64,000 bases of DNA from Mytilus edulis (lineage: Eukaryota), in NCBI RefSeq assembly GCF_963676685.1, contig NC_092347.1:72788001-72852000 (forward strand), read 5' to 3'. Each line of letters starts with the position of its first letter. Within the stretch, counting starts at the first letter, position 1. The position numbers were made by a program, and so were the translations under genes. Shown here piece by piece: positions 7,401 to 64,000 of this stretch. The notes beneath the pieces were generated by a model. That model worked only from the letters and a program-made list of their open reading frames with translations, did no database searches and was not told the DNA's origin.

Positions 7401-7909
7401 TGGACACACAAAAGTCCACATGAGCTATTAAAGACATTTGACAAAATTACCCTATGTCGGTTGCAGTCTTGTAATTTACTGCTCCATAGGCTTACATGCA
7501 CAACAGCTGATCTTTGAAAATAAAAAAAATGAAAAATTCTACATAGAAAAAAAAATTCATGTATGTACTTATGTGAAATTGTGATATAATCGGGATAAAA
7601 GTGGGTCAAGCCACGAAGAATAAAAAGTTACACAATCAGGAAGTCAAAACCTTTTTTTTTACTTTCTGTTTGCTGTTTTCACTAGGCCGCACCACTTCCA
7701 GTAAACATGATATCCTTCCACTTTTCTGGATTGATATCCCCAAAAAGATGCTAGATTTTTTAAAAGTCTGTATATTTGTTTCAATCAGCATAAACTTATA
7801 ATCGAACAGAATAAATTGAGTTCAGAAAAAAATGCACTATTTTTTCCCCCAATGTTTTGACATGCACCGGAAACCTGCACCGGAAACTGGAGCTGTGATA
7901 CAAGGACCG

Positions 7910-10900
7910 GTACCTGATACGAGACGTCAGTATTTCTATTAATAGAAACATATATAAATATGATTAAGCGCTGGGCTAAGTACTTCCCGCTTCGATACTT
8001 GATTAAACGGATAGTTAAATTTTCATTCATAAAGTTAAGGTTAGTCTTTCATTTTATCACATTTTACGTGTATATAACATGTGCACATTTATTGTTGCTA
8101 ACACATATACATGACGAAGCATCCATGATCACTTTTTCTATGTTGAGCGAGTGGTTAACATTGTTTACAAACATAGTCCCAAGTGGACAGTGTGATACCT
8201 ACCATTGTTTTCATACCATTTCAAAATTTATAATTTCGTCAAGTTTTATGCTTCAAATTGGAAGTCGGGAGATACCACGACACTGTGGAGAGTTGCCTCA
8301 TTGATAATCACATTTTTACATAGATCAGACTCAATCAAGTAGATAGACAATTTTTAGTATTATTTTGCTTCTTTCCTCGTGACTGTAATCCAATTGTGTA
8401 TACACAGCGGTACGTTTCATTTAATTTATATTCTACCTGTTAACTTATGTTGTCGTACCCGGTCAAACTGTTACATGAGGCATCTGTACATTTTTTCTTT
8501 CTATTTTACATGATAAGCCTTACCTGTCAAAGTATATGTTTGAATGGTCATTTGTTGGTTAGTTATTTTCATAACACAACAGATCTGTAAGAAGACTTTT
8601 AAATTTTCTAAATCAAGACTTTTTTTCAACATTTATTCATATGCAGTCAAAGAAACAACTTTCGAGTTCGTTTCATTTAGATCATCATGATATTATGATT
8701 AATATTAGGGACCATATTATTCGTGCGTTTCGAAGCATCCATTAACACTTCTTTCTATGTTGATCGAGTGGTTAACATTGTCTACAGACATAGTCTCAAG
8801 TGGACAGTGTGTCACCTTCAATTGATTTCATACCATTTCAAAATTTATAATTTCGTCAAGTTTTATGCTTCAAATTGGAAGTCGGCGGATAAAACGACAC
8901 TGTAAATGAATGTACAAAAAATTGGGTCAATAATTTTGAAGTAAAGTAGCGATTTGATCTAGCTGAAAAAAGGTGAAAAATAGTATTTCGGAAGCTGTCA
9001 ATAGAATTCAAGACCTTCTTAATAAACAATTGTTCATATTTTGAATTAGAACTGACGAAGTTGTCTATACTTGTGACATAATTTGTCCAAAAAGTAGTAC
9101 ACCACACGGTAAACATATTATTGTGAAAACGCAGGTGGGATTTGTTAAATTTCCATGTATTGTTTAAAGAAACTAGACTGTACCCTCTGGCCCGTTTATT
9201 TACTACATCATATTGCTATACCCATCATTTATATAACATTCAAATGCACAGTAATTCAGTAAGTGTCAATGCCGAAATTGGGTCATGTGAATATTAGCGG
9301 CCATGCTGCGAGAACTCTCTGTTCTTTTGAATCCCTACGGACGTTTTTATTGAATTGTAGGAAAGGATACGAGACACTAACACAGTGACGTCAGTATTGC
9401 TATAAATAGAACCATATATGAATATCACTGAGTAATTGGCAAAATACTTTACGCTGTGATACTTGATTAAACGGATAGTTAAATTTTCATTTATAAAGTT
9501 AAGGTCAGTTTTCATTTTATCGCATTTAACGTGTATATTACACCTGTATAACATGTGCAAATTAATTGTTGCTAACACATTTACATGACTTATTAACTTT
9601 TATTATCTTTGTTTATTACCGCTGTTTTTATCAATAATTAAGTTCATATTCATTATTGAGACAAAACACTAAATTTGAAAGCCATACGGTAACACATAGT
9701 TGTGAATTTCTTTGCTATTTGGTCTTTTGTGGAGAGTTGCCTCATTGATAATCACATTTTTACATAGATCAGACTCAATCAAGTAGATAAGACAATTTTT
9801 CGTTTTATTTTGCTTCTTCCATCGTGACTGTAACCGAATTGTGTATACACAGCGGTATGATTCATTTAATTTCAATTCTACCTGTTAACTTTTGTTGTCA
9901 TACCCGCTCAAACTGTAACATGAGGCAACTGTACATTTTTCTTTCCATTTTACATAATAAGCCTTACCTGTCAAAGTATATGTTTGAATGGTCATTGGTT
10001 TGTCAGTTATTTTCATCACACAAAAAATCTGTAAGAAGACTTTAACCTATAATGGTTTAATTTTTAAATTGATACTTGGATGGAGAGTTGTCTCATTGGC
10101 ACTCACACCACATCTTCCTATATCTATTTAAAACTTTAACAGTCAAGATTTTTGTCAACATTTATTTATATGTAGTCAAAAAACAACTTTCGAGTTCGTT
10201 TCATTTCGACCATCAAAAAATGATGATTAATATTATGGACCATATTATTCGTGCGTTTCGAAGCATCCATTATCACTTTTTTCTATGTTGAGCGAGTGGT
10301 TAACATTGTCTACAAACATAGTCTCAAGTGGACAGTGTGTCACGTTCAATTGTTTTCACCATTTCAAAATTTATAATTTCGTCAAGTTTTATGCTTCAAA
10401 TTGGAAGTGGACGAATAAAACGACACTGTAAATGCATGTACAAAAAATTGGGTCCATAATTTTGAAGTAAAGCAGTGATTTGATCCAGCTGAAAAAAGGT
10501 GAAAAATAGTATTTCGGAAGCTGTCAATAGAAATCAAGACCTTCTTAATAAACAATTGTTCATATTTAGAATTAGAACTGACGAAGTTGTCTATAATTTT
10601 GACATAATTTGTTTCAAAAGTAGTACACCACACGGTAAACATAATATTGTGAAAACGCAGGTGGGATTTTTTGAATTTTCATGTATTGTTTAAAGAAACT
10701 GCACTACGTAAAGACTGTGCCCTCGCCATGGGGCAAGTTTATTTACTATATCATTTTGATATACTCATCATTTATATAACATTCAAATGCACAGTAATTC
10801 AGTATATGTCAATGCCGAAATTGGGTCATGTGAATATTAGCGGCCATGCTGCGAGAACTTTCTATTCTTTCGAATCCTTACGGACGTTTTTATTAAATTG

Positions 10901-11100
10901 AAAGAAAGGATACGAGACACTAACAGAGTGACGTCAGTGTTGCTATAAAAAGAACCATATATGAATATCATTGAGTAATCAGGAAAGTACTTCACGCTAT
11001 GATACTTGATGTAACGGATAGTTAAATTTTCATTTATAAAGAAAAGGTTAGTCCTTCATTTTATCACATTTTACGTGTATATAACATGTGCAAATTAATT
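7910..11100. repeat. Local tandem segmental duplication with an ~1.45-1.55-kb unit (copies ~8286-9590 and ~9731-11100, plus a partial copy at ~7910-8270)
   Basis: Blocks such as GGAGAGTTGCCTCATTGATAATCACATTTTTACATAGATCAGACTCAATC occur at ~8287 and ~9731. ORFs 8856-9116 and 10382-10642 are near-identical. Each unit contains an inverted relic of the MITE found at 23589-24044. Confidence 0.88.
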
Positions 11101-15576: not shown

Positions 15577-17861
15577 TTTTTATACGACCGCAAAAATTAA
15601 AATTATTTTGGTCGTATATTGGTATCACTATGGCGTCGTCGTCGTGGGCATCCGAAGACTTGTGGTTTTCGCACTATAACTTTAGTATAAGTAAATAGAA
15701 ATCCCTATGGAATTTAAACACAAGGTTTATGACCATAAAAGGAAGGTTGGAATTGATTTTGGAAGTTTTTGTCCCAACATATTAGGAATAAGGGGCCAAA
15801 AAGTGCCCAAATAAGCATTTTCTTGGTTTTCGCACTATCACTTTAGTTTGAGTAAATAGAAATCTATGAAATTTTGACACAAGGTTGATGACCACAAAAG
15901 GAAGGTTGGGATTGATTTTGGAAGTTTTGGTCCCAACAGTTTAGGAATAAGGGGCCAAAAAGGGCCAAAATAAGCATTTTCTTGGTTTTCGCACTATAAC
16001 TTTAGTTTAGGTAAATAGAAATCTATGAAATTTTGACACAAGGTTGATGACCACAAAAGGAAGGTTGGGAATGATTTTGGGAGTTTTGGTCTCAACAGTT
16101 TAGGAATTAAGGGCCAAAAAAGGGCCCAAATAAGCATTATTCTTGGTTTTGGCACAATAACTTTAGTATAAGTAAATAGAGATCAATGAAATTTAAAAAC
16201 AATGTTTATGACCATAAAAAAAAGGTTGGGATTTATTTTGGGAGTTACCGACCGTGCAAGGGCTGTATAGCCAGTCAAGGTCGTTAAAAACTTCTATTTA
16301 TTGTTTTGGTAGTTTTGGTCCCAACAGTTTAGGAATAAGGGGCCCAAAGGGTCCAAAATTAAACTTTATTTGATTTCTTCAAAAATTGAATAATTGAGGT
16401 TCTTTGATATGCCGAATCTTACTGTGTATGTAGATTCTTTATTTTTTGTCCCGTTTTCAAATTGGTCTACATTAAGATCCAAAGGGTCCAAAATTAAACT
16501 AAGTTTGAATTTAACAAAAATTGAATTCTTGGGGTTCTTTGATATGCTGAATCTAAACATGTACTTAGATTTTTGATTATTGGCCCAGTTATCAAGTATG
16601 TCCAAATCGGGGTCCAAAATGAAACTTTGTTTGATTTCAACAAAAATTGAATTCTTTATGTTCTTTGATATGCTGAATCTAAACATGTACTTAGATTTTT
16701 TATTATGGGCCCAGTTTTCAAGTTGGTCCAAATCGTGGTCAAAAATTAGACTTTGTTTGATTTCAACAAAATTGAATCCTTGGGTTTCTTTGATATGCCG
16801 AATCTAAACATGTACTTAGTATTTTTATTACGGGCTAAGTTTTCAAGTTGGTCCAAATCGTAGTCCAAAATTAAACTTTGCTTGATATTAACAAAAATTG
16901 AATCCTTTGGGTTCTTTGATATGCTGAATTTAAACATGTATTTAGATCAAATTGGGGTCCAAAATTCAACTTTGTTTGATTTCGATTTTGTATATATGGG
17001 GGTTCTTTGATATATGCTCAATCTAACCATGTATTTAGATTGTTGATGTTTGGACCCGGTTATCATATTGGTCCACATTGAGGTTTAAAGGGTCAAAAAT
17101 TGAACTTTATTTGATTTCATCAAAAATTGAATTCTTGGGGCTCTTTGATATTCTGAATCTAACCATGTGTTTAGATTTGGGATATTGGACCATGATATAG
17201 GTAATGTCCAATTTAAAATTAAATAAAGGCAACAGTAGTACATGTATACCGCTGTTCAAAACTCATAAATCCATGGGCAAAAAACAAAATCGGGGTGACA
17301 AACTAAAACCGATGGAAACGCATTAAATATAAGAGGAGAACAACGACACAACACTAAAATGTAACACACACAGAAACGGACCAAGCATCAGACAAAATCC
17401 CACGAGAATAACAAATATAACATCAAAACCAAATACATGAATTTGGAATAGACAAGTACCGTGACACGTCTTATCGCAATGTGAATTTACACTCAAAAAT
17501 AAAAGATAACAAACGACGCAACGTCAAAATGTAACACACACAAAAACGAACTATAATATAACAATGGCCATATTCCTGACTTGGTACAGGACATTTTTAA
17601 AGAAAAAAATGGTGGGTTGAACCTGGTTTTGTGGCATGCTAAACCTTCCTCTTTTATGGCCATGTGAAATATAACATCAAAATGACAACACAACACCACA
17701 GGACTACAATATAAAGTTTTTAAGTTTAAGTTCTTAGACCACATTCATTATGTGTCAGAAACCTGTGTTGTATCAAGTTTGAATGCTGTGTCCATACTTG
17801 CCCCAATGTTCAGGGTTCAACTATGCGGTCGTATAAAGCTGCGCCCTGCAGATCATCTGGT
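15577..17861 (+). mobile_element. HINE/DINE-1-like non-autonomous Helentron-type element with internal tandem arrays (~160-bp then ~120-bp units), nested in an older repeat and carrying an insert at ~17220-17710
   Basis: Starts TTTTTATACGACCGCAAAA...GGTCGTATA (subterminal inverted repeat), then a (GTC)n microsatellite, tandem units at 15660-16330 and 16350-17200, and a 3' GC-rich hairpin ending ATCTGGT. The flanks rejoin as AACTGATTTT/ATAGTTCGTT. Confidence 0.7.
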
Positions 17862-22339: not shown

Positions 22340-23214
22340 TGATTTCAACAGAGTCAGATGACATTTCATACCGTGCCTCAAATTGTATTTTGAAAATCTT
22401 TATAACTTGGTAACATATATCTATATTGATCATTGTGTTTTAGTTTGTGTTATATTTTGTTTGGGTAGCGTTCACAAGCAACTGTTGTTGGGAGTCTTTA
22501 AATTTCCTTTATAGCACTGTTGGTTATGGTCTTTTTATTTATTAATTCCACGAACATGGGGAATTTATTTTTATCAAGCTGTTCACGCGAATTGCATAAC
22601 AATTAGAAACATTCCGACTAAATGCAGTCCAGTCTAGTATGGTCGACCTGATTTTTCAGTCCGTGGGTGGACAGACCAGATTTTCGAAATATTTGATATT
22701 TAAAATATGGCGGGAAAAGGCTGACTCGGACTTTTATCTTATATTTGCATTGGTATTATTTGGGTCTCAAATCAAAAGAAAGAAAATCAACAATCTGCCA
22801 TAATTTTGGTAAATGACCTTCAAGAGCTATTAAATCTTGTATGAAGAAATAAATGGGTGTTATGGGGCAAAATATTTTACCTTGTATTGTATGGAAAAAC
22901 ACCAAAGAGTCCGAATATTTGACACAAATGTCAAAACCTAACTAACCTAACCTTAACTAAGGCCGTGTTTGATTACAAAGAATCCGGAACGGTGTTTGAA
23001 ACCAACACGTCATTTTACAAGATTTCCTCGGATATAAGAAACAGTGAATATTGTCCCGAAACATGATTTATAGAGTTAGAGATGGCCGGGTTTAACCGCT
23101 TCACTTTACTTACATCAGTACTTCTATAGACAGGTACCTTTAAAATACACACAAAGAAACAACAAGTGTCTGCGTTACAAATTTCCAAATATACTTAGCT
23201 TTAAAATGTAAAAC

Positions 23215-23369
23215 GTGAATATGACAAAAACAAGTCTGAATGAGTGTGAATATGACAAAAACATGTGTGAATGAAGGTGAATATGACAAAAACAAGTCTG
23301 AATGAGGTTGAATATGACAAAAACAAGTCTGCATGAATGAGGGTGTATATGACAAAAACATGTGTGAAT
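23215..23369. repeat. Minisatellite, about five copies of an ~31-bp unit (GAATATGACAAAAACAAGTCTGAATGAGTGT-like)
   Basis: Direct tandem repetition. Confidence 0.85.
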
Positions 23370-23588
23370 TAGTGGGAATAAACTAAGAGTGATATCGAGG
23401 GAAACACATATAAAAATATCATCACATTGAGAACCCACAAACAACAAGTAAGCAGAAGAAAAAAGATTGAAGTTTTTACAAATTAAATTTGTACAGGGTT
23501 TTTGTACATGTTATAAATTTTCGTCAAAGTTCGTGAATGTAAAATACGAATAGCACCACTCATAATTAATTACAATCCGTAATTAATC

Positions 23589-24044: not shown

Positions 24045-24436
24045 AATATATTTGAAAACGAAAACACAAATATGAATTAGGAATAAAATCATCTTTATTT
24101 AAAGCAAATTCATATCGGAAATAAAATATACATTACAAAATCATATCAGTACTTATTCAATCGTGAATAAATACACACTAGGACATTTATACATACCTTT
24201 TTGCACCAGGTGATAAAACATTATCTTATTAAATGTTTCAGTTTCATGTCTTAAATTTAGATTTATACATTTCAACCTAAAAAAAATAGTGTTATTCTCC
24301 TTGACGTCAAACTGGAATAAAGGACACCCGAATAGTCTTAATTCTAAATTTATTTCCTGCTTATACCAAAATCATACCCATAACAGGTCTTTTTTGTATT
24401 CTTGCAATGTTTTTGTATCAATACACAGTATTATTA

Positions 24437-24546
24437 GTTACATAGTGTGCTAGTAACCTAATACGGTATATATGGGGTCAGTAAATTCCATATGTAATTT
24501 ACTGACCCCATATATACCGTATTAGGTCACTAGCACACTATGTAAC
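24437..24546. repeat. 110-bp near-perfect spacerless palindrome
   Basis: GTTACATAGTGTGCTAGTAACCTAATACGGTATATATGGGGTCAGTAAATTCCAT is followed directly by its reverse complement, with two mismatches. Confidence 0.92.
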
Positions 24547-24764
24547 GAATTTATCTTACCAACTATCTGAACGTGTGAAATTTAGACCTATCAAAATGAG
24601 CAAGTCTTCAATACCGTTAGCATAAAGAAACTACTTCCACTGATCCTACAAAATCAGATACCAACAAAAACAACTTGTTAGGTTTAAGGATGTTCGCTAC
24701 TCTGTTTGAAAATAACAAGCTTTTTAAAAGAATGTTATAAATTGAAAGTGTATAAATAAAGAAA

Positions 24765-52866: not shown

Positions 52867-54958
52867 TGCGTATTTTAATTCTTATAGTTCATTATAAAAG
52901 CAGTGTATACATTTATAAGAAGATGGTATGAGTGTCAATGAGACAATTTCTCATCCAAGAATATATATATGTTTGTAAACGAAGGCGATATTTTATGAAG
53001 AGTAATTGAACGAATACAAGTTTTGCTATAAAGGAAATAAATTTTATACAAACTGTAAATCATCAAATGTAAACGAATAAGTAGATTTAATTATTTGAAA
53101 CCTTATAATAGATAGAGTTTGTCTGTAAATACCATTCATTTCTAAGGAGATTATCGCTATTTTATCACTTTACCAATAGAGGTATCCTCAAACAATAGCT
53201 TTACCATCAATTGGATTGGAAAGGATAGTGGATGCATTGATTGCAATTATTTGACTGGTAGATTTTCAAATTGTTTACTGACATGGGCACACAATTTACA
53301 ACTGGTTAAAAGTTTGAAGTAAGTAGATTAATTTCTCTTCCGCTAAAGACCACTTCTTTGTATCATCCCATATTCAATGGGCACATCAAAAGTTTTATAC
53401 TTACATTGTAGCTATGTTTGCCGACTTTGTGATGAACCACACCAGTGTCTGGGCAGAAAGTTGCTGAACCAGTTGATCTCTTATATTTGATGTGTTTCCC
53501 TCAGTTTAAGTTTGTAACCCAGATTTGTTTTTTTTCTTAACCGATTTATGAATTTCGAACACCGGTATACTACTGTTGCCTTATTTATGCCAGAGACTCT
53601 CCGTTTATGCCGAAGAACATCTCGTCTTTTTTTCTAAAAAAAAATATCATTGGAGGATACCAAGACCTTGTTTATAATTATTTCGTATCAACTCCTCAAA
53701 CAATACATGATAGTCTTGAAGTATAGATTCTAGGTACTGACATTGTTTATCATCTTAGTTACATGTTATAGTGTTTTCTTTTTTTACTTTGTAATTATTA
53801 ACCTTTACTGTTTATTTTTTTTTTGGTTATAATTCTTTTTGTGTGGTTCGATACTTATGCATCCCGCTAATATGATGTGATGATGTATGTTTTAGTCTAC
53901 TTCTTCATTTTTACATTTTGCGCATGACTTTTTGTGTTTAGTCTATATGCAATTTTGTTTTTCTATGTTGTCACATTTGTTTGTTGTTATAGTGAATAAG
54001 ATTATAAAACAAAGTTGACTTCTGTACCCGTATTTTTGACCGTTGACATTTTTACCCATTATGTCTGTTTGGTTTGTTCAAACATTGTTGTCAATATAAT
54101 AACATTTTATGTGACTGTCATAAAATTGAGAGATTTAGCTATCTATAAAACAAGGTTTATATTTATCCACCATTTTCTACATAAGGAAATGCCTATTCCA
54201 AGACAGGAATACGACAGTTGTTTTCCATTTATGATTAGAGACTTTCCAATTTAAATTTTCCTTAGAGTTCTGATTTTTTGTCAATTTGCTTTTTATTGTA
54301 TTTTGTTCAGTACTGTTTAATTTCATAGGTTGTGGCAATTCTTTAAGAATGGTCAACTATGTAAGCAACAGATCCAGATGGAAGATCCACACATGAGTAT
54401 TAAGAATGTCATCAAGAATGTTCAGAATCTCCGTAAGAAGTGGTCAAACTATAGTTTGGCATCTTAAATATGCATTCATTTGAATAATAAAAGATTTAAT
54501 CATATTTTGGTTTTTTATCGCTAAATATTTTTAAGGTTGATTCTTGGAGTTATATTTATATTTTGTTCTGTTTTATAGTCAGAAGAGACAAAGTTTTACA
54601 ATGTGGTGATAATGAGCTTATATTTTGACAGGTCTTGTGTTGTGTTTAATATTAGATACAGTTTAATGCCTCTCTTGGTAAAATCATACAATATCATAGC
54701 AGTTTCTTTTAGAGAGAAACTATGGGTTGCTGTGGTATATTAGTAGAATATAACCACGATCACATTATGGTAGCTCTACTGCCACTTAATTGACATTTGC
54801 AAATAGGTAGAGCTGATTTGTATCCATTTTCATTACAAAAAAACTACTAGTGCTGGTAGAGTGATTAGACAGTCTATCAACAGAACAACAAACAGAACTG
54901 GACTACAAATTAATAGCCCTGGTAAATCCTTGTCTTTCTAAATTTTTACCTATAATAG

Positions 54959-56442
54959 TGTAACGGTTTCGTTATTTAAATTTATAGGTAGATTGATTTA
55001 CAACCATCACAGTTCTTTTATGAACGGTGGGAGGGCTAAACAATTTTCAAGCATTTACTGGACTTATAGTCGTGAAATCACATCATTATAATGAACTGTG
55101 TCGGGAATGTCAGGATCATATTATTACTCCAACTGAACGTTTATTTTATGTGTAATGTATAAAGAGTTCTTACCTTTACGATTTATTGTTTGCATTCCGT
55201 GGTAGCATCTTAAATTATTCATGTCTATAATTTGGAGTCCCGTTATTTTTTATGTACATTGATTTTCATGTACGACGCTCTGGTATCATATATTGTCGTC
55301 GCCATTATTGTTGACAAATTACGTCACACATTGAACCTTGGGAAAGTGCAGGTGGCATGACGTCACACAAGTGAACGTCAATTCTACTATGTTCTTATAC
55401 AAAATGTGTGTCACGGTGTGTCTTAGTGTGTCGTCCTTGTATATAAATTTGCGACATCTAAGCACTCGGGTTCAGTCTGTTTCGTCTGGGCGCCATTCCT
55501 ACGACTTTCAAATAACTAAAGCTGCTTACATATTTTTGTCTTAAGGTTAGCATATAGGATTATAAATATATAAAAAAGGGTTAAAATAATATTTCTGGAT
55601 ATCATCTACAATTTGTCGGTGACAATAACTTTCATTGATTTCATTTAAGAGAATTATACTGATTCAATACATATCAACACTGCGACACGGTGCCGACACA
55701 CATAAGTGTGTCGTGTTTCTAACAACGTATATAAAGCAGATTTTTTATACATTCTTTATATAAATAAAGATACGAAATTCACTTTTGAAAGTTATATAAT
55801 ACAAGGCGTATTAAAACTAATAGAAGAATAGAATATTGGAATTATTACTCTGAATAGGTTTTTCGTAGTATTTAGGCCTTATAGGACGACACACTTTTAA
55901 AGCAGAGAAATAGTAATAACTCGACACACATACTTATATCATACAAGAGAATATTGTTTTAGACTAAGTAAGGGAATAAATTGTATATTATCATATTATT
56001 TGTTTATTGTCATAGTATTGTTCATAAGAGATATATACTGATACCAGAGCCATTCATTTGCTACCATAGATGTAAATAAGATATCATAAATCTATTTAAG
56101 ACGTATTAATAACTGTTTCTTGGTAATTAATCGACTTATTGTTTATTGTTATAAAAGATCATAATATATTTCACTTCTAGTTAATAAATCGTTAACTTAT
56201 TAAATATCTCCTTATATATGCCATACGTGATTCACTTTATACTATCAACTGTACCTAGAGGCGTTTACGTTCAGGATCATTCCGCTAAGGTTTAATAATA
56301 GGAGTACGTTATTGCCCATCCTCCCTTATAAAACGCTCTAGATCCGTTGATAGGTACACAAAGTTTCTTGGATATAAAATTGTTGTCGTTGAGGAGATTG
56401 TCGCTGATTACATCTCACAGGCAGCAGGTCGGACCCGCTTCA
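54959..56442 (+). repeat. 5' LTR (about 1484 bp)
   Basis: Starts TGTAACGG, identical to 63548. The end is placed at the CA immediately before the PBS; the distal part cannot be compared with the truncated 3' LTR. Confidence 0.88.
55319..55478 (+). promoter_or_regulatory. LTR promoter: three CRE-like sites, three phased GTGTGTC repeats, TATA box and initiator
   Basis: TTACGTCA at 55319, TGACGTCA at 55358, GAACGTCA at 55373; GTGTGTC at 55406, 55416 and 55426; TATATAAA at 55440; TCAGTC at 55472. Confidence 0.7.
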
Positions 56443-56443
56443 A

Positions 56444-56461
56444 TGGTGGCAGCGGTGGGAT
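56444..56461 (+). other. Primer-binding site complementary to the tRNA-Leu 3' end
   Basis: TGGTGGCAGCGGTGGGAT is the reverse complement of ATCCCACCGCTGCCA+CCA, the 3' end of metazoan tRNA-Leu (AAG/TAG type). Confidence 0.9.
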
Positions 56462-56505
56462 CTACTAATAACAAACAGTAGGAATCCACACACAGAAAAA
56501 TAAAC

Positions 56506-58062
56506 ATGTATCAAGACCCAGCTGATATGACTACCTTCGACAATGACCGATCACCAACTTTAGACCAAGATATAGACGACACGCGGGCCCAGACGACAGG
56601 ACTCCCCGCACCAGTTAGAGAACGATATATCAATGCAACACCCTCTGGAGAAGTACAGGTGCGGGTTAAGACGAAACCAACTAAACCAAGCCACGTAAGG
56701 AGCTCACTATCAGATATCGGACTTAGCGGATTAAGGAGTGGACACAGTGAGTCGGAAAAAGAACGTTTTGGCGGAGCAGAATTTTCTAGAAACAGAAATG
56801 ATTCTGCATTTGATAGATCAGCGGCATTCATAGCTGATAATCAACGGTTATCCCATGGAAGGAGAGATATATCGTCTGAAATCGGTCCAAATGATAGTAA
56901 ATTTACTTCGGGGCGGGACCCCGCGGACACTCGGGCGTTTGTTCAACGCCATTTGAATATATCTCACGATCCTATATCGTTGGCTATGCCAAGTCGGGCT
57001 ACCACGAGAGAGGAAAGGGTTACCCCATGGAAGATCCGCACTGACACTAGAGCTCCCGATTCTTTTGGAAATCAGGAACGGGAGTTTCCGGACGTTATGT
57101 CAGGGTTTGAGGATAATTTTCTTGGTCGTTGCGACAACCAAGTAGGACGCCAACGTTCCGTATTGACGGACAGACGGAGGGCAGATGATAATATGACATC
57201 ATTGCCGACAAACAGGTACATAAATTCAGCAAGTACGACGCAGAAATACAAGAATCCAACCAATTATGACGGGGAGAGTAGTTGGCAGGACTATCAAGTC
57301 CACTTTGAGATGGTATCTGAGATGAATGGCTGGGACGACACAACAAAAGCTCTTGAATTGGCAACAAGTTTGAGGGGCTCTGCCCAAGCAGTACTGAGTG
57401 ACCTACGACCAGACTTAAGAAGAAGCTACGAACACTTAATAGCGGCTCTTACATCAAGATTCCAGCCAAGTAACCAGTCAGAATTATACCGAGCACAAAT
57501 GAAGAATCAAACTCGTGGGAAGGGACAATCATTGCCAGAACTAGCACAAAGTATCAAAAGGGTTACTAGACTTGCATACCCTACAGCTCCTATTGAGGTA
57601 CGAGAACAACTAGCGCGCGATTGTTTCATGGATTCACTCAACGATCCAGATCTTGAATGGGCAATTTTTCAAGGCAAACCAAAAACCATAGACGATAGTG
57701 TCAGGATAGGGCTAGAATACGAGGCATTTACATCAGGACATAGAAGGAAATACTCAAATAGAGCGCCTCTTATACGCCAAACCACGGGAATTTCTATAAG
57801 TGACTCAGAGGAGTCAGAAGATATGGATAACATCATTGAAAGGTTAGCTAGGATAGAAAAACAGGAAACCAGGAAAAAACCAGCAGGACCTTGTTACTTT
57901 TGTGGAGCAAAAGGTCACATTAAAAGGGAATGCAGAAAATTTCAGGCGTCGCTGGGGCGACAACAAAATAACAATGTTAACCAGAAGGCAAATACTAGAA
58001 CCTACACACAAGGCACACAAACAGCCAATCTTACGGGTGTGTTACCGCCGGGAAACTATTAA
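56506..58062 (+). CDS. gag: Gag (518 aa): disordered N-terminus, capsid region, CCHC zinc knuckle
   Basis: YDGESSWQDYQVHFE..NGW capsid start; CYFCGAKGHIKREC knuckle; position directly after the PBS. Confidence 0.93.
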   Translation: MYQDPADMTTFDNDRSPTLDQDIDDTRAQTTGLPAPVRERYINATPSGEVQVRVKTKPTKPSHVRSSLSDIGLSGLRSGHSESEKERFGGAEFSRNRNDSAFDRSAAFIADNQRLSHGRRDISSEIGPNDSKFTSGRDPADTRAFVQRHLNISHDPISLAMPSRATTREERVTPWKIRTDTRAPDSFGNQEREFPDVMSGFEDNFLGRCDNQVGRQRSVLTDRRRADDNMTSLPTNRYINSASTTQKYKNPTNYDGESSWQDYQVHFEMVSEMNGWDDTTKALELATSLRGSAQAVLSDLRPDLRRSYEHLIAALTSRFQPSNQSELYRAQMKNQTRGKGQSLPELAQSIKRVTRLAYPTAPIEVREQLARDCFMDSLNDPDLEWAIFQGKPKTIDDSVRIGLEYEAFTSGHRRKYSNRAPLIRQTTGISISDSEESEDMDNIIERLARIEKQETRKKPAGPCYFCGAKGHIKRECRKFQASLGRQQNNNVNQKANTRTYTQGTQTANLTGVLPPGNY

Positions 58063-58092
58063 AGGTCGAGGGGGAGGTCCCACCTTTGGCCG
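58050..58092 (+). promoter_or_regulatory. -1 programmed ribosomal frameshift signal (G GGA AAC plus downstream stem-loop)
   Basis: GGGAAAC at 58050-58056 is in the correct X XXY YYZ phase. The -1 frame reads on without a stop into pol (..LLKVEGEVPPLADTF). AAAGGT (58061) can pair with ACCTTT (58082). Confidence 0.85.
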
Positions 58093-61000
58093 ACACTTTC
58101 ATTATTAATGAGGGACCATGTATTGAATTTTCTAATGAACAAATTAAGCATGATAGTTTATATTTAAAAATTAATTTAAATGGAATTTTTGTCAATTGTT
58201 TGATTGATACTGGATCAACAATGTCCATATTACATAGTCGAAAATATTTTTCGATACCAGAATCTCAAAGACCCGTATTGTCTAAATCGGGTGTCCGTTT
58301 AAAATTAGCAAATGGAGACCTCCAGGCAACTATTGGAAAAGCAGAATTTTCCATTACAATAAACGGGAAATGTTTTCAACACATCTTATTGATAGCCGAT
58401 ATTGATACTCCGGCTATTTTGGGATATGATTTACTAAACCGACACAACTGTAAGATTGACCTTGGCAAGGGTACTATAACATTTGGAGGCACTGAGATTG
58501 CATGTCAGAAAGAGTCGCAAATGGCGACTATTTTTAAGGTTACCATTGATGAAAATGTTACATTACCACCTTTTTCGGAATCCATTATAAGAGCAACAAT
58601 AGTAGGAGATTCGAGTCATATTTCTGACGCTATTGTTGAACCAGAAGAGCCAAGTACCGACACGAATTTTCATGTCGCACGATCGGTAGTTGACCCTAGC
58701 AATGGTACAATACCGATGCGTATTGTTAACATGATCGACACAGAATGTGTCATCTACCGACACACCAATCTTGCAACATGTGAGACACTACCATATGGTT
58801 CCTTTCAGTCGGAACCTCCTGAAAGGAGTGAAGTAGTAAGAACTAATATAATTACTACTAATACCGAGGACCCAGAAAAGACTTATTCAATCTTACCTCA
58901 CCACCTTGAGGGTCTTTTCGTGGCAAGTAGTCGTGAGTTGTCCGAAGAGCAGAGAGTGCAGTTGGAACATCTACTGATCCGACACAGCGATGCTTTTGCA
59001 AAATCAAAGAATGATTTGGGTTGTTGTGACCTCATTGAACACACAATTGACACGGGTGATGCCAGGCCTGTTAAACAGAATCCGAGACGTCTTCCTCTGG
59101 CCAAACGGGAGGCAGCAGATCAAGAAATAGACCGGATGCTGGAGGGAGGAATCATCGAGCCTAGTACTAGTCCATGGTCGTCCCCAATCGTACTAGTACC
59201 TAAGAAATCCGACGGCTCTTGGCGCTTCTGCGCGGACTTCAGAAAAATTAACCATTTGACAAAAAAGGACTCGTATCCACTCCCAAGAATAGCAGATTGT
59301 CTGGATGCTCTGAGAGGCGCAAGTTGGTATTCGACCATTGATCTGCAAAGTGGTTATTGGCAGGTAAAGATGGCCGAATCCGACAAAGAAAAGACGAGTA
59401 TTGTCACAACTAAAGGCCTTTTCCAATTTAAAGTAATGCCATTTGGGTTATGCAACGCGGGCGCATGTTTCGAAAGACTCATGGAGTGCGTTCTGTCAGG
59501 GCTGAATTGGCAAATTTGCCTGTTGTATTTGGATGATGTCATAATTTTTGCAGATTCATTTGAAGAGCACCTGTCCCGTTTAGAACAAGTTATATCAAAA
59601 ATCAAAAATGCCAATCTAAAAATCTCACCAAAGAAATGCTCGTTTTTCCAGGAAAAAGTTCATTTCCTTGGTCACGTGGTATCTGAAGAAGGAGTTGCTA
59701 CCGACCCTGATAAGATAGCAGCTATAAAAGAGTGGCCTACCCCTAAAACAGTTCACGAGGTGCGAAGTTTCGTAGGTACCTGCTCTTACTATAGGAGGTA
59801 CATTCGTGGATTCTCTGACATAGCTAGGCCACTTCATAAACTTACGGAAAAAGGGGATCGATTTAAATGGACTCAAGAATGCCAAAAAGCGCTCGATACA
59901 CTGAAGGAATGCCTAATCTCAGCTCCGATACTTGGATATCCGGATATTAGCAAACCTTTCATCTTAGATACCGATGCTAGTGGGTACGGAATTGGGGCAG
60001 TGCTATCCCAAGTAACAGACGAAAAAGAGCAGGTTATAGCATATTTCAGCAAGAGTATGAATAAACCCGAAAGGAACTACTGTGTCACTCGACGGGAGTT
60101 GTTAGCAGTAGTTTTATCCATCAAACATTTCCATCACTATTTGTATGGAGTCCCGTTCCTGGTTAGGACAGATCACGGCGCACTCAATTGGATAATGAAT
60201 TTCAAAAACCCTGAAGGTCAAACCGCGAGATGGTTGGAGATCCTTGCCTCCTATAATTTCACCATTCAACACAGACCTGGCAGGCAACACAATAATGCAG
60301 ATGGACTCTCGCGGCGTCCATGTTCTCCGTGTACATACTGCACCCGTCAAGAAAGTAAGAACAGAGAAAATACGGAGAAAGATGACATTGAACATGTCAG
60401 AGTCGCGAAAGGAGCCACAAAGGAACCTGAAATATTCGATACCGAAGAAGTCGACATAGAAGATAACACGGACAGCTTTGAATGGGTACAGAGTAGAAGC
60501 CTCGTGGAAATCGCAACTGCTCAACAAAACGACACGATTTTGAAGCAATTACGGGAGATGAAAGTGAAAGGTACAGAAAGGCCCAATTGGGAAGATATTT
60601 CTTTTCAAAGCATAACTTTGAAAGTTTATTGGGCCCAATGGAACAAGATAAAATTGGAAAATGGTGTCCTGTATAGGTGTTGGCAATCCAAAGACAAGGG
60701 TGAAATAACCCAGTTAATCTTACCTGACTGTTGGCATGAGGAAGTCATGAAAATGCTGCATGACGATCCACCCGCTGGACATTTTGGCCAACATCGCACC
60801 TTAGCCAGAGTTTCGAGACGATTTTATTGGGCAGGTTACAAGGATTACGTTATACAATGGTGTCGACAATGTAAAACGTGCGAAGCTCGTAAGAAACCCC
60901 AGAAACATTATCAAGGACTTATGAAGCAGTACCTGGTGGGGGCACCATTAGAACGGGTGGCCATTGACATTCTTGGCCCTTTACCCAAAACTCATTCAGG

Positions 61001-61916
61001 TTACCGGTACATCTTAGTTCTCACGGACTATTTCACGCGATGGGCCGAAGCCTACCCTATGATTGGTCTGACCGCTGAAGAAGTTGCTGAAATTTTTGTC
61101 AGTCAATTTGTGTCACGTTTTGGAGTTCCAAAACAGTTGCACACAGATAGAGGAACTCAGTTTGAGTCCAAACTGTTTCAGGATCTATGTTCCAGATTAA
61201 AAATAGACAAGACACGAACAACAGCAATGCATCCACAAAGTGATGGAATGGTAGAGCGGCTAAACAGGACTTTGGAAGATATTTTGAGTAAATACGTAAC
61301 TAAACATCAAAAAGACTGGGATGAACATCTACAGTTAGCTCTCATGGCTTACAGGTCATCCGACCATGAGAGTACAGGGTTTTCGCCCTCCATGTTGATG
61401 TTCGGAAGGGAAATTGAACTTCCCATTGACCTGATTTTTGGATCTTACCCAGATAGTATAGAGACGGACGAGAAATCCGAGAATGATTACCTAAAAGATT
61501 TACGAAAGGGGCTTTGGGACATACACGATGTCGCAAGAGAGAAGATGAAACACGCAAGTGATAGACAAAAACGTCAGTACGACACTAGGGTCCATTCGCG
61601 ACAATACCGTGTCGGTGATGCTGTCTGGATATTCAACCCATTGCGAAGAAAAGGGTTAAGTCCAAAGCTGCAACCACACTGGATAGGCCCTTACATCATT
61701 AGAGAAGTTTATACAGACTTAATTTATAAAATAGCGCGGCAGAACGGATCGAAAGAAATAGTCATCCACCATGACAGGTTGAAACCATATTTCGGTTCTC
61801 TCGATACAGTTCCGGAATCATCGTCTGATGTAATAGATACTGGAGAACCGGAACTTGTTTCGTCGCGTCCTTCGAGACTAAGAAAGAAGCCGAAATATCT
61901 AAACGATTTTGTATAA
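58086..61916 (+). CDS. pol: Pol polyprotein (protease, dUTPase-like relic, RT, RNase H, integrase), expressed as a Gag-Pol fusion
   Basis: LIDTGS protease; IDL, MPFGL and YLDD RT motifs; LDTDAS, RRELLA and RTDH RNase H; HHCC (H..H..C..C), D,D35E and W.GPY integrase. Confidence 0.97.
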   Translation: MADTFIINEGPCIEFSNEQIKHDSLYLKINLNGIFVNCLIDTGSTMSILHSRKYFSIPESQRPVLSKSGVRLKLANGDLQATIGKAEFSITINGKCFQHILLIADIDTPAILGYDLLNRHNCKIDLGKGTITFGGTEIACQKESQMATIFKVTIDENVTLPPFSESIIRATIVGDSSHISDAIVEPEEPSTDTNFHVARSVVDPSNGTIPMRIVNMIDTECVIYRHTNLATCETLPYGSFQSEPPERSEVVRTNIITTNTEDPEKTYSILPHHLEGLFVASSRELSEEQRVQLEHLLIRHSDAFAKSKNDLGCCDLIEHTIDTGDARPVKQNPRRLPLAKREAADQEIDRMLEGGIIEPSTSPWSSPIVLVPKKSDGSWRFCADFRKINHLTKKDSYPLPRIADCLDALRGASWYSTIDLQSGYWQVKMAESDKEKTSIVTTKGLFQFKVMPFGLCNAGACFERLMECVLSGLNWQICLLYLDDVIIFADSFEEHLSRLEQVISKIKNANLKISPKKCSFFQEKVHFLGHVVSEEGVATDPDKIAAIKEWPTPKTVHEVRSFVGTCSYYRRYIRGFSDIARPLHKLTEKGDRFKWTQECQKALDTLKECLISAPILGYPDISKPFILDTDASGYGIGAVLSQVTDEKEQVIAYFSKSMNKPERNYCVTRRELLAVVLSIKHFHHYLYGVPFLVRTDHGALNWIMNFKNPEGQTARWLEILASYNFTIQHRPGRQHNNADGLSRRPCSPCTYCTRQESKNRENTEKDDIEHVRVAKGATKEPEIFDTEEVDIEDNTDSFEWVQSRSLVEIATAQQNDTILKQLREMKVKGTERPNWEDISFQSITLKVYWAQWNKIKLENGVLYRCWQSKDKGEITQLILPDCWHEEVMKMLHDDPPAGHFGQHRTLARVSRRFYWAGYKDYVIQWCRQCKTCEARKKPQKHYQGLMKQYLVGAPLERVAIDILGPLPKTHSGYRYILVLTDYFTRWAEAYPMIGLTAEEVAEIFVSQFVSRFGVPKQLHTDRGTQFESKLFQDLCSRLKIDKTRTTAMHPQSDGMVERLNRTLEDILSKYVTKHQKDWDEHLQLALMAYRSSDHESTGFSPSMLMFGREIELPIDLIFGSYPDSIETDEKSENDYLKDLRKGLWDIHDVAREKMKHASDRQKRQYDTRVHSRQYRVGDAVWIFNPLRRKGLSPKLQPHWIGPYIIREVYTDLIYKIARQNGSKEIVIHHDRLKPYFGSLDTVPESSSDVIDTGEPELVSSRPSRLRKKPKYLNDFV

Positions 61917-62126
61917 TTTAGTAAAAGGGTTAAAAATTAAAGAAAATGTTTCCACAAATAAATAAGGGTTTTATAGTCAAAATTTAGGGTTTTAAGGATT
62001 TTCAAATGGTTGTACAGGGTTGGGGTAGGACTTAAAATATAAAGCTGTCAAAGAAAATCAAATCTGTGGCTCTGGTATCTCCTGTTTGGGTTTTCTCGGA
62101 CTCATGGTTAAATTTTATTTTCCCAG

Positions 62127-63386
62127 ATGTTCACCTGTAATGAGTGTATGAGGAACTATCCCACTCTGGAGAGTCTCAAGAGGCATTTGCGCTATGCGCA
62201 CACAGATAATAGAGTGAAATGTAGATGGTGTCCCTACGACGTATCATCCAATGCCACCTACAGGATGAGGCATCATGAGAAATCCAAACACTGGTACAAG
62301 TTCAAGGATGAAAGTAAGGAAAACCAAAAGACACCCACAAAGAAAATACCATCAGTGGTAAAGAAAGTGGAAAAGAAGAAGAAGAAGAAGAAGCAGAGTT
62401 CAACTAACTCTGAGGCTACAAAATTGCCCTCAGCAGAATGCCCACCACTGAGGGAACCATCACCCATGACAGTGGAATTCGAGGAACTCATGGCCACCAA
62501 ACATACAACCCCTACAGAAGACCTACTGTTCGCGTTACCAGTTATAGCAGTCGCAGAGGTAGAGAATTCAGTAGATAACACTCCCCTTTTGAGTGTTCCG
62601 GAGCTTGTTAAATCAGTCATGCAGGATCAAGAACGAGCCAAGATAGCAACTGATAACATTAAAGAATCAGATGGTTTCGAAATTGAGAAGGGAACAGTAG
62701 TCATGGATGACCAATCAGTACCCGTCAGTGAGGACATCCAAGAGCCAGATGAAACTGTAATTAGTGAGCGACCAGGAGAAGACACAGTGACAGAGGTGAG
62801 GGAGCAATTAGTCGAAGTCACCGAGGACGGCATGGAGGTCATCCAAGAAGATATAAGGGTTGTCGAAATAGATGGGATGACGCCCACGCCCAACTACCTC
62901 CCCTCCAGAATTACTCCCACTCATCTAAAATTTGGAAAAATATATGATTATAGACACTTTGGACTGCCCGAGGAGAAGGACAATGAGGATCCCAGGCAGG
63001 TACTTCTTTGTCCTCCTTCGTCTTATCACTCTTCTAATGAGGCTGTACTATTGAAGAGACTCAGGGAACAGGCTAGGAGAAACAACCTTTCTACTACTAT
63101 TTTGCCAGATGGTTATTCTGGTTTAATCAAAACTGAGAGATGTGAGCTCCCGGATGGAACAGTATATTCACTGACCAGTCACTGGGTGCCAGACATCCCG
63201 GTCCGAAGGTACAAGACAACTGGAGTTCAGGCTTCTACTACGCCCGAAACTCGTGATGAAAATATACAGGTTACTCCAGTAACCACCTTATCGGGAACCC
63301 AAACAGAGGAGATGACAGCAATTGTAAAGAAAACATTCGAGGATAAAGAAAGCAGTTGTGACATTATTGCATGTAGATTTTACTAA
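62127..63386 (+). CDS. ORF3 (419 aa): two C2H2 zinc fingers, poly-Lys NLS, acidic disordered region, TQT-like motifs; not an envelope protein
   Basis: CNEC-x12-H-x4-H and CRWC-x14-H-x4-H; KKVEKKKKKKK; no signal peptide or TM. The acceptor TTTTATTTTCCCAG| lies directly before the ATG, and the ORF sits between pol and the PPT. Confidence 0.88.
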   Translation: MFTCNECMRNYPTLESLKRHLRYAHTDNRVKCRWCPYDVSSNATYRMRHHEKSKHWYKFKDESKENQKTPTKKIPSVVKKVEKKKKKKKQSSTNSEATKLPSAECPPLREPSPMTVEFEELMATKHTTPTEDLLFALPVIAVAEVENSVDNTPLLSVPELVKSVMQDQERAKIATDNIKESDGFEIEKGTVVMDDQSVPVSEDIQEPDETVISERPGEDTVTEVREQLVEVTEDGMEVIQEDIRVVEIDGMTPTPNYLPSRITPTHLKFGKIYDYRHFGLPEEKDNEDPRQVLLCPPSSYHSSNEAVLLKRLREQARRNNLSTTILPDGYSGLIKTERCELPDGTVYSLTSHWVPDIPVRRYKTTGVQASTTPETRDENIQVTPVTTLSGTQTEEMTAIVKKTFEDKESSCDIIACRFY

Positions 63387-63534
63387 TCGTGTTTAAAGAC
63401 ATTAGAACCGAACAATATGTGCATCGAATTCAGTTTTATACCAATAATGTGTTCATTTAGCTATTGTTTTGTTTATATGCTCAATTATTGACTATTGTTG
63501 TTAAATGCGTTCAGTTTGGGGACAAACTAAATTT

Positions 63535-63544
63535 GGTAGGGGGG
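63535..63544 (+). other. Polypurine tract
   Basis: GGTAGGGGGG, 3 nt upstream of the 3' LTR TG. Confidence 0.85.
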
Positions 63545-63547
63545 TAT

Positions 63548-64000
63548 TGTAACGGTTTCGTTATTTAAATTTATAGGTAGATTGATTTACAACCATCACA
63601 GTTCTTTTATGAACGGTGGGAGGGCTAAACAATTTTCAAGCATTTACTGGACTTATAGTCGTGAAATCACATCATTATAATGAACTGTGTCGGGAATGTC
63701 AGGATCATATTATTACTCCAACTGAACGTTTATTTTATGTGTAATGTATAAAGAGTTCTTACCTTTACGATTTATTGTTTGCATTCCGTGGTAGCATCTT
63801 AAATTATTCATGTCTATAATTTGGAGTCCCGTTATTTTTTATGTACATTGATTTTCATGTACGACGCTCTGGTATCAGATATTGTCGTCGCCATTATTGT
63901 TGACAAATTACGTCACACATTGAACCTTGGGAAAGTGCAGGTGGCATGACGTCACACAAGTGAACGTCAATTCTACTATGTTCTTATACAAAATGTGTGT
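63548..64000 (+). repeat. 3' LTR (partial, truncated by the window end)
   Basis: Matches 54959-55411 with one mismatch. Confidence 0.95.

Follow-up and report, generated by a model that had tools for sequence, protein, structure and literature searches.

The window, i.e. the whole 64,000-nucleotide stretch of Mytilus edulis DNA analysed here, contains a Ty3/Gypsy LTR retrotransposon on its forward strand, in which LTRs with TG..CA ends, a target site duplication (TSD), a primer-binding site, and a polypurine tract are all present. The 5′ LTR (1484 bp, TG..CA; 54959..56442) carries a promoter, a short first exon, and a splice donor. It is preceded by one copy of the 4-bp TSD ATAG (54955..54958, unstranded), the second copy being located just past the window end, after the 3′ LTR (63548..64000, continuing beyond the window end). 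Only 3 differences were found between the two LTRs in the 1485 positions compared, the 3′ LTR being taken as read in locus L031. Because the LTRs are near-identical, as the first-pass annotation of this DNA had stated, and are flanked by ATAG, the insertion is taken to be young, with no hedge needed on the LTR count itself. An identical copy on contig C119, with a flank matching at 99.95%, is the window insertion assembled a second time and thus does not represent an independent copy. The primer-binding site (56444..56461), which we take to be that for tRNA-Leu, is followed by gag (518 aa, 56506..58062; zf-CCHC, with Retrotrans_gag below the cut-off) and pol (1305 open codons, 57999..61916). 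In pol, the Pfam domain search located protease, reverse transcriptase, RNase H, and integrase in the order PR-RT-RH-IN, the Ty3/Gypsy arrangement. A GGGAAAC slippery heptamer is located within gag (58050-58056), and on unspliced RNA the gag ATG would be preceded by a ~1-kb leader (55546-56505) consisting largely of LTR sequence. A third ORF encoding an accessory protein of 419 aa (ORF3, 62127..63386), claimed at first sight to be intact between pol and the polypurine tract, is indeed open throughout; it begins 210 bases after the pol stop (61916) and ends ~150 bases before the polypurine tract (63535..63544).

A search of the 1.37-Gb genome with ORF3 gave 99 matches, from which 29 loci were sampled so as to span the match scores. 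A Gypsy pol was found upstream of the ORF3 homologue in all 29 loci (within ~0.9 kb in 26, with an insertion or rearrangement intervening in the other 3), and the homologue is enclosed by a pair of LTRs with 95–100% identity in 22, the position relative to pol and the 3′ LTR thus being the one foreseen for it. The dN/dS values between subfamilies (E04, E05, and E08 vs E06 and E07) were 0.03–0.05 for the fingers and 0.06–0.07 for the C-terminal domain, and those for the whole ORF3 were 0.09–0.33 (nine unsaturated pairs). By this sequence-based measure, the folded parts of ORF3 are under purifying selection. A profile of the C-terminal domain matched 253 representative proteins. The nearest named homologues are those of Mytilus edulis, M. 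galloprovincialis, and M. coruscus, and the organisms named among the 30 homologue clusters looked up are M. galloprovincialis, Argopecten, Mizuhopecten, and Potamilus. Because two metagenome scans yielded no ORF3 locus, the context in species other than that of the window is provided by predicted proteins alone, which join integrase to ORF3 (P0257, P0168, and P0093). In one predicted Potamilus protein (P0069), a Tpt1/KptA RNA 2′-phosphotransferase domain is joined to the ORF3 domain, possibly as a gene-model artefact.

If ORF3 were a captured host exon or a neutral passenger with no role for the element, the detection by Pfam of generic C2H2 fingers only, and the derivation from cellular families of the BTB and TatD ends found in sister clades (see below), would be readily accommodated. 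This reading is contradicted by retention across families, the pol proteins of which are only 48–60% identical to that of the window, and by dN/dS values far below 1; the conserved splice signals, the 253 representative homologues, and the presence of named homologues in scallops and a freshwater mussel as well as in Mytilus also stand against it, making it scarcely credible. ORF3 is kept across families and is under selection, and thus is not a one-off captured host exon; it is a real, conserved extra gene in the retroviral env position.

Two tandem C2H2 fingers are located at the N-terminus of ORF3 (aa 4-55; 62136..62291), as had been noticed at first sight. Their eight zinc ligands, C4/C7/H20/H25 and C32/C35/H50/H55, do not vary among the 11 family representatives, and both fingers adopt the beta-beta-alpha fold in the AlphaFold model (pLDDT 82–94), in which the middle of the protein is disordered. 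Finger 2 carries a 2-residue insert. Pfam scores the ORF3 fingers below its cut-off (E 0.001). DNA-binding C2H2 proteins (ZFAT, CTCF, and the two-finger/DNA complex 2drp) are among the nearest rows in the fold searches, in which no row reaches E 0.001. Among the 25 homologues containing both fingers, Arg is conserved at two base-contact positions, namely helix position 6 in finger 1 (21 homologues) and position 3 in finger 2 (18 homologues). The TDNRVK linker to which the first-pass annotation drew attention is present but is not of the TGEKP type and varies among homologues.

The region that follows (62307..62921) is disordered and fast-evolving, without conserved composition. It contains the poly-Lys stretch (aa 83-89) and the acidic segment described earlier, the latter being disordered as claimed, but both are confined to the window family, the corresponding regions of other families being S/T/P-rich, and a basic NLS-like patch is found in only 7 of the 11 representatives. 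The acidic tract was considered as a conserved activation domain and rejected. The length of this region shifts by in-frame tandem repeats (L043, L045, L041, L047, and L075), with a repeat unit of about 33 aa in E06/E07 and ORF3 lengths of 537–623 aa within one family.

The compact C-terminal block of the earlier description corresponds to a conserved, unnamed domain of ~90 aa (aa 266-362; 62922..63212), which is modelled as a helix plus a long beta-hairpin (pLDDT 74, pTM 0.49). No sequence match was found in Pfam or the PDB. In fold comparisons, the best Z was 2.3, Foldseek gave no match at E 0.001, and nothing was matched in the PDB, VIA wide, and viral fold libraries, a lack of match that does not establish a new fold. 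One ESM Atlas search returned nothing, and another returned unnamed arthropod clusters at 0.91–0.93 with low recognition, which serve as a lead only. Longer fused forms of the domain were not found in a weak search. ORF3 contains no signal peptide or fusion fold, and no TM segment was detected (best 19-aa hydropathy 1.11), in agreement with the earlier statement; ORF3 is therefore not env. This anatomy, as read from sequence and models, fits a nuclear regulator.

Upstream of the coding region, the 5′ LTR contains an inferred TATA box (55440..55447), found at a comparable position in four other family or subfamily LTRs, and a non-coding first exon (55470..55545, the start being inferred from the TATA box) that ends at the donor AAG/GTTAG; there is no ATG between the TATA box and the donor at 55545. 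One contig of run X18 skips 6581 bases with GT..AG ends (55546..62126), joining LTR position 55545 directly to the ORF3 ATG and removing the primer-binding site, gag, and pol. X18 is a public run of unrecorded type, not documented as RNA, and its single junction contig has a depth of 28.2 and a shorter side of 28 nt. The splice acceptor (62105..62126), a pyrimidine-rich tract ending in CAG, abuts the ORF3 ATG, as had been noted. YAG is found directly before the first ATG in 19 of 21 intact ORF3s, against a background of 3% for the 1271 plus-strand ATGs in the window; in the remaining two, YAG precedes the second ATG in one and the acceptor lies 3 bases earlier in the other. Each of five family or subfamily LTRs contains the same donor word once, 106–155 bases 3′ of the TATA box; the word is also present in L121, and the array–TATA–donor layout is kept even in LTRs that share no blastn match (window vs E04).

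Four runs were compared over 54940-63545. In X18, the depth was 82.6 over ORF3 vs 4.7–9.8 across most of gag-pol (~9-fold over pol). X1, which is guessed to be RNA, contains LTR and ORF3 contigs only, and the raw-read RNA runs X21 and X24, of which about 6% and 18% were read, gave one read each and are thus uninformative. The possibility that the junction stems from a deletion in the genome was rejected, as the fetched donor copies all continue GTTAGC and the near ORF3 starts all keep the acceptor, a check that covers this assembly and not the individual behind X18; the joined, intron-less form was absent from the genomic copies examined. A second donor near 56990, suggested by a step in X18 depth, was dropped because no such joint was listed. 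ORF3 thus appears to be spliced from a short non-coding LTR exon with gag-pol dropped, the spliced transcript proposed earlier being seen as the 55545-62127 junction in X18, the one run showing it.

Because the donor sits inside the LTR, the genomic RNA must retain the 6.6-kb intron. C2H2 fingers can also bind RNA and protein. ORF3 could act in the manner of Rev or of CERV of the nematode element Cer1, being made first from the spliced RNA and then binding the unspliced genomic RNA, which would escape splicing or exit the nucleus. Besides the need to keep the intron, the dominance of the spliced form in X18 and its being the sole form in X1 are in line with such a role, as is the fact that Cer1 meets this need with a Cys-rich nuclear protein that is made by splicing and for which multimerisation is predicted (PMC10309623). 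Against it stand the CtBP motifs and BTB ends described below, which are typical of chromatin factors, and the statement in the same report that CERV is without an obvious homologue outside nematodes (PMC10309623); we regard this role as doubtful.

In a disordered region between the unnamed domain and the C-terminus (63213..63311), motif matching identified three LC8-type anchors, namely Q368 (VQA), Q381 (IQV), and Q392 (TQT). One is a full TQT and two are variants, Q368 being degenerate but in a conserved +25 register. Of the 150 homologues listed, anchoring was possible for 142, and 119 were long enough for analysis. A TQT-type anchor located +14..+30 after the conserved Asp of the domain was found in 57 of these 119 (mean 5.1 and maximum 13 in 1000 shuffles), 50 of them at exactly +25, and the other 62 have no anchor in this interval. 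Position +2 is E/D/P in 38 of the 57 anchors, a feature that was not used in the search and that matches the flank preferences of LC8 binders (PMC6607443), and many homologues bear 2–4 anchors. Given the fixed register, the triplet could alternatively be part of the domain fold.

A complex prediction for ORF3 with host LC8 scored 0.52 vs 0.16 for the best control (partner pLDDT 35–37; contact agreement at least 48%). Of 78 solved pairs, 51 reached the mark used, as did 2 of 108 mismatched pairs, and passes at ≤0.60 comprised 5 of the 78 solved pairs and all 4 of the passing mismatches (of 180). Because of these low-score pass rates and because LC8–TQT is already a solved pair type, the prediction adds little, and modelling gives weak support for LC8 binding by ORF3. 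The genome contains seven near-canonical, intronless LC8 genes in two clusters (L090-L096, G000:C6), with divergent paralogues elsewhere. CtBP-type PxDL[ST] motifs are also present in the homologues (16 motifs in 13 of 145; shuffle mean 1.0, maximum 4), and E23 carries three PxDLS-type motifs; the window ORF3 contains no PxDLS motif.

Such motifs could also belong to a counter-defence decoy, in which case ORF3 would titrate or misdirect the silencing cofactors LC8 and CtBP and would not act on its own promoter. In Drosophila, dimerisation of the piRNA silencing complex PICTS requires LC8/Cut-up (PMC7861614), CtBP is described as a target of viral proteins such as E1A, and the 2–4 anchors of many homologues would suit this function. 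LC8 is, however, abundant and is encoded by seven near-canonical genes in this genome, and a pure decoy has no need of two conserved fingers. Panoramix, to our knowledge, is not known from molluscs, and the decoy function is accordingly judged unlikely.

A candidate DNA target was found on the element itself. Three copies of GTGTGTC with 10-bp spacing are located directly 5′ of the TATA box (55406..55432), forming a candidate binding array for ORF3 or a host factor, and the window LTR contains seven copies in all (0.08 expected). CGACAC is the top hexamer of the LTR (7 vs 0.2). In an independent comparison, it also ranks first among the 1814 hexamers of gag+pol, on both strands (12 vs 3.5 in synonymous shuffles; 0/300); 12 GTGTCG sites are present in gag+pol. 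E04 and E06 keep a phased GTGTC array, and E10 and E12 have GAGTC at this position; the GAGTC signal in three other elements is post hoc. A blind two-stage LTR-to-coding motif test was passed in 1 of 28 families, 19 of which were assessed with an approximate stand-in for the LTR and an incomplete pol, and in 3 of 756 cross-family controls; a general rule of this kind was therefore rejected. The GTGTC repeats are nevertheless a candidate target of ORF3 on its own element, as judged from motif counts. CRE/AP-1-like words are also present in the LTR, and the GTGTC array may instead bind a host factor.

The first-pass interpretation of ORF3 as a transactivator, repressor, or anti-silencing factor encoded by the element itself is partly supported by these results. 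What stood is an element-borne and selected gene that is not env and that is spliced in the one run showing it; what was overstated is the lack of precedent, as regards a spliced regulatory gene in a Ty3/Gypsy element. The LC8-type and CtBP-type motifs, the motif repeated in the LTR, and the cassette shared across the lineage with its exchangeable ends had gone unnoticed. We favour the reading that ORF3 is a dimerised DNA-binding regulator of its own element, with a probability of roughly 0.6. In the proposed mechanism, the LTR transcript, spliced as in X18 from the short non-coding exon directly to the ORF3 ATG, would give a product that enters the nucleus, where two or more copies would be held together by the host hub LC8 and the unnamed domain. 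Since a pair of fingers reads no more than about six bases, LC8 and the unnamed domain would dimerise them on the phased promoter-proximal repeats. The doubled finger pair would bind short repeats on its own element, namely G[T/A]GTC arrays by the TATA box and, in the window family, dispersed GTGTCG sites. Bound ORF3 would then set element transcription, its most plausible mode of action being activation or anti-silencing, with feedback. In some relatives, added PxDLS motifs may additionally engage the corepressor CtBP, and sister clades may use other end modules (BTB, coiled coil, TatD, or unknown).

The distribution of such genes in related elements was analysed using integrase. The search gave 133 scored loci, and 40 previously unsampled integrase loci (42–65% identity) were fetched. 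A 3′ ORF or pol extension with a zinc-finger cassette was found in 32 of the 40 (two as the BTB part only, and some decayed), and 8 are without the cassette, two of these being truncated or interrupted just past integrase. The cassette heads consist of one or two C2H2-like fingers, and the tails include the window domain, BTB_2 (E down to 2e-16), TatD (E 1e-46 to 9e-40), coiled coils, and unnamed modules. Independent insertions have the ORF and the sequence past it in common. A quick integrase tree without bootstrap (49 rows, own-genome integrases; E22 omitted as too short) placed each tail type in its own clade (SH-aLRT 98 for BTB, 99 for TatD, 99 for coiled coil, and 100 for the others). The window domain was found in two clades (SH-aLRT 96 and 100) plus one unplaced row, the window-domain families not all being resolved as one clade in this tree. 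Because most relatives carry versions of the transcription-factor-like ORF3, these elements may control their own expression.

The cassettes differ in composition among the clades. In the BTB clade, a zinc finger, a Ser-rich linker, and a KCTD-type BTB_2 domain are arranged in this order (L105:3091-4290, L108, L109, L112, L116, and L118; also L106, L107, and L114), and in the TatD clade a full-length TatD-like nuclease domain forms the end of the 3′ ORF (L132:3257-4753; L135:2043-4154, minus strand; and L136:3272-4744). The 3′ ORFs of L119, L120, L134, and L139 are 580–690 aa long, two being split by a frameshift, and encode two fingers and a conserved middle block, with an unnamed domain at the C-terminus; for these ORFs, Pfam gave a weak finger hit only. 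In L127, L130, and L131, and in L123 and L138, small finger ORFs with a coiled-coil or short tail were found, some with one LC8-type anchor. In the group comprising L115, L117, L122, L124, L126, and L129, several copies carry the cassette as an in-frame continuation of integrase, and the cassette ends in a short hairpin-like block, which recalls the hairpin of the window domain (a likeness only). The pol genes of L135 and L137 end with a PHD-like finger.

The in-frame, chromodomain-like arrangement in one sister clade (L115, L117, L122, and L126) and the PHD-like fingers ending pol in two TatD-clade elements could point to an adaptor that targets or transports the particle or the integration complex, in which case the fingers would read chromatin or DNA and the LC8 anchors would link to transport, guiding integration or nuclear entry. 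In most clades, however, ORF3 is separate and has its own acceptor, and dimerisation, not carriage as cargo, is the usual outcome for LC8 partners (PMC6607443), making an adaptor function quite improbable.

Extending the preferred reading, a dimerised regulator, to the whole group, many bivalve Gypsy elements might be ‘complex’ retrotransposons that encode their own spliced C2H2 transcription factor, recognise a family-specific motif in their own DNA, recruit host hubs (LC8 and CtBP) or captured modules (BTB, TatD, and coiled coil), and thereby activate themselves or resist silencing; this wider proposal is tentative, and we place it at somewhat below even odds.

Several known systems resemble ORF3 in part. 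Complex retroviruses encode spliced 3′ accessory regulators such as Tax, Tat, Tas, and Rev, to which ORF3 is analogous as a spliced 3′ accessory gene presumed to act on expression of its own element. No sequence or fold match was found in PDB sequences or in the PDB and viral fold libraries, and ORF3, unlike them, resides in a bivalve host and in a Metaviridae-type retrotransposon without env. Errantivirus env is made from a spliced subgenomic RNA, as ORF3 appears to be. As in errantiviruses and other env-carrying metazoan Ty3/gypsy elements, ORF3 is a third ORF between pol and the 3′ LTR (PMC13524379), but it lacks the signal peptide, TM segment, and fusion fold of env; because ORF3 is no envelope, the element is not an errantivirus. 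The main text of PMC13524379 contains 0 word matches for zinc, C2H2, or Mytilus.

The earlier statement that no such factor is generally described in Ty3/Gypsy elements requires qualification, since CERV, encoded by Cer1 of Caenorhabditis elegans, is a precedent for a spliced regulatory gene in this group, although it acts in gRNA export and not in transcription (PMC10309623). Like ORF3, CERV is a Gypsy-encoded accessory protein made from a spliced mRNA, and it is nuclear, with a possible zinc finger and predicted multimerisation; unlike ORF3, it shares gag exons and has a C4-type Cys loop and a G-protein-like domain (PMC10309623). ORF3, in contrast, is a single 3′ coding exon with C2H2 fingers, the unnamed domain, and LC8 anchors.

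The cellular transcription factor ASCIZ/ATMIN has N-terminal C2H2 fingers. LC8 tunes this factor via many motifs in a long disordered region (PMC5963919). The likeness to ORF3 is an analogy only: ASCIZ/ATMIN is cellular, has many more anchors, and lacks the unnamed domain. VANC proteins of Arabidopsis VANDAL elements are TE-encoded anti-silencing proteins and, as may also hold for ORF3, are accessory proteins paired with family-specific short repeats on their own element (PMC5735166). VANC is an unrelated protein of a DNA transposon with a demonstrated function; the ORF3 pairing is a correlation, and of 28 families only 1 shows it clearly. Among bdelloid rotifers (PMC5408684) and plants (PMC7264820), non-env ORF3s and aORFs, respectively, represent exchangeable cargo in the ORF3 position; as described in the passages of these papers on such ORFs, they are GDSL, DEDDy, env-like, or antisense, and none combines a constant C2H2 head with clade-specific tails. 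Mollusc Gypsy clades have been named MolGy1-16, C-clade, and others (PMC6238403).

Extra ORF3s, a spliced Gypsy regulator, TE-encoded anti-silencers, and a link between LC8 and piRNA silencing are thus already known. A zinc-finger ORF3 of this kind was not described in the literature searched, the scope of which excluded Repbase, supplements, and most subscription journals; Repbase may already note such ORFs. Likewise, no such ORF appears in passages of PMC12440569, PMC6238403, PMC13228809, PMC10294476, and bioRxiv 10.64898/2026.08.24.746577. If the proposed role is correct, ORF3 would be to animal retrotransposons what transactivators are to retroviruses and VANC is to plant elements; host zinc-finger silencers of transposons are well studied, transposons with their own zinc-finger factor much less so. 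With a protein that has a candidate DNA site to match, a defined splice, and specific putative host partners, self-activation or silencing resistance of animal LTR elements becomes directly testable, and the constant finger head with clade-specific tails provides a natural series for studying protein–target co-evolution. In addition, many ‘hypothetical C2H2 proteins’ annotated as bivalve host genes gain a family, and the unnamed domain is now defined, with at least 253 representatives.

Two minor observations were also made. A near-identical relative of the window element (L034/L035, G000:C1:115.19-115.21 Mb) is rearranged and contains inverted LTR and ORF3 pieces; it could be a source of dsRNA or else an assembly artefact. 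The host part of the window contains tandem and dispersed repeats and a palindrome with 59-bp arms (7900-11100, 15700-17200, 23200-23400, and 24433-24550).
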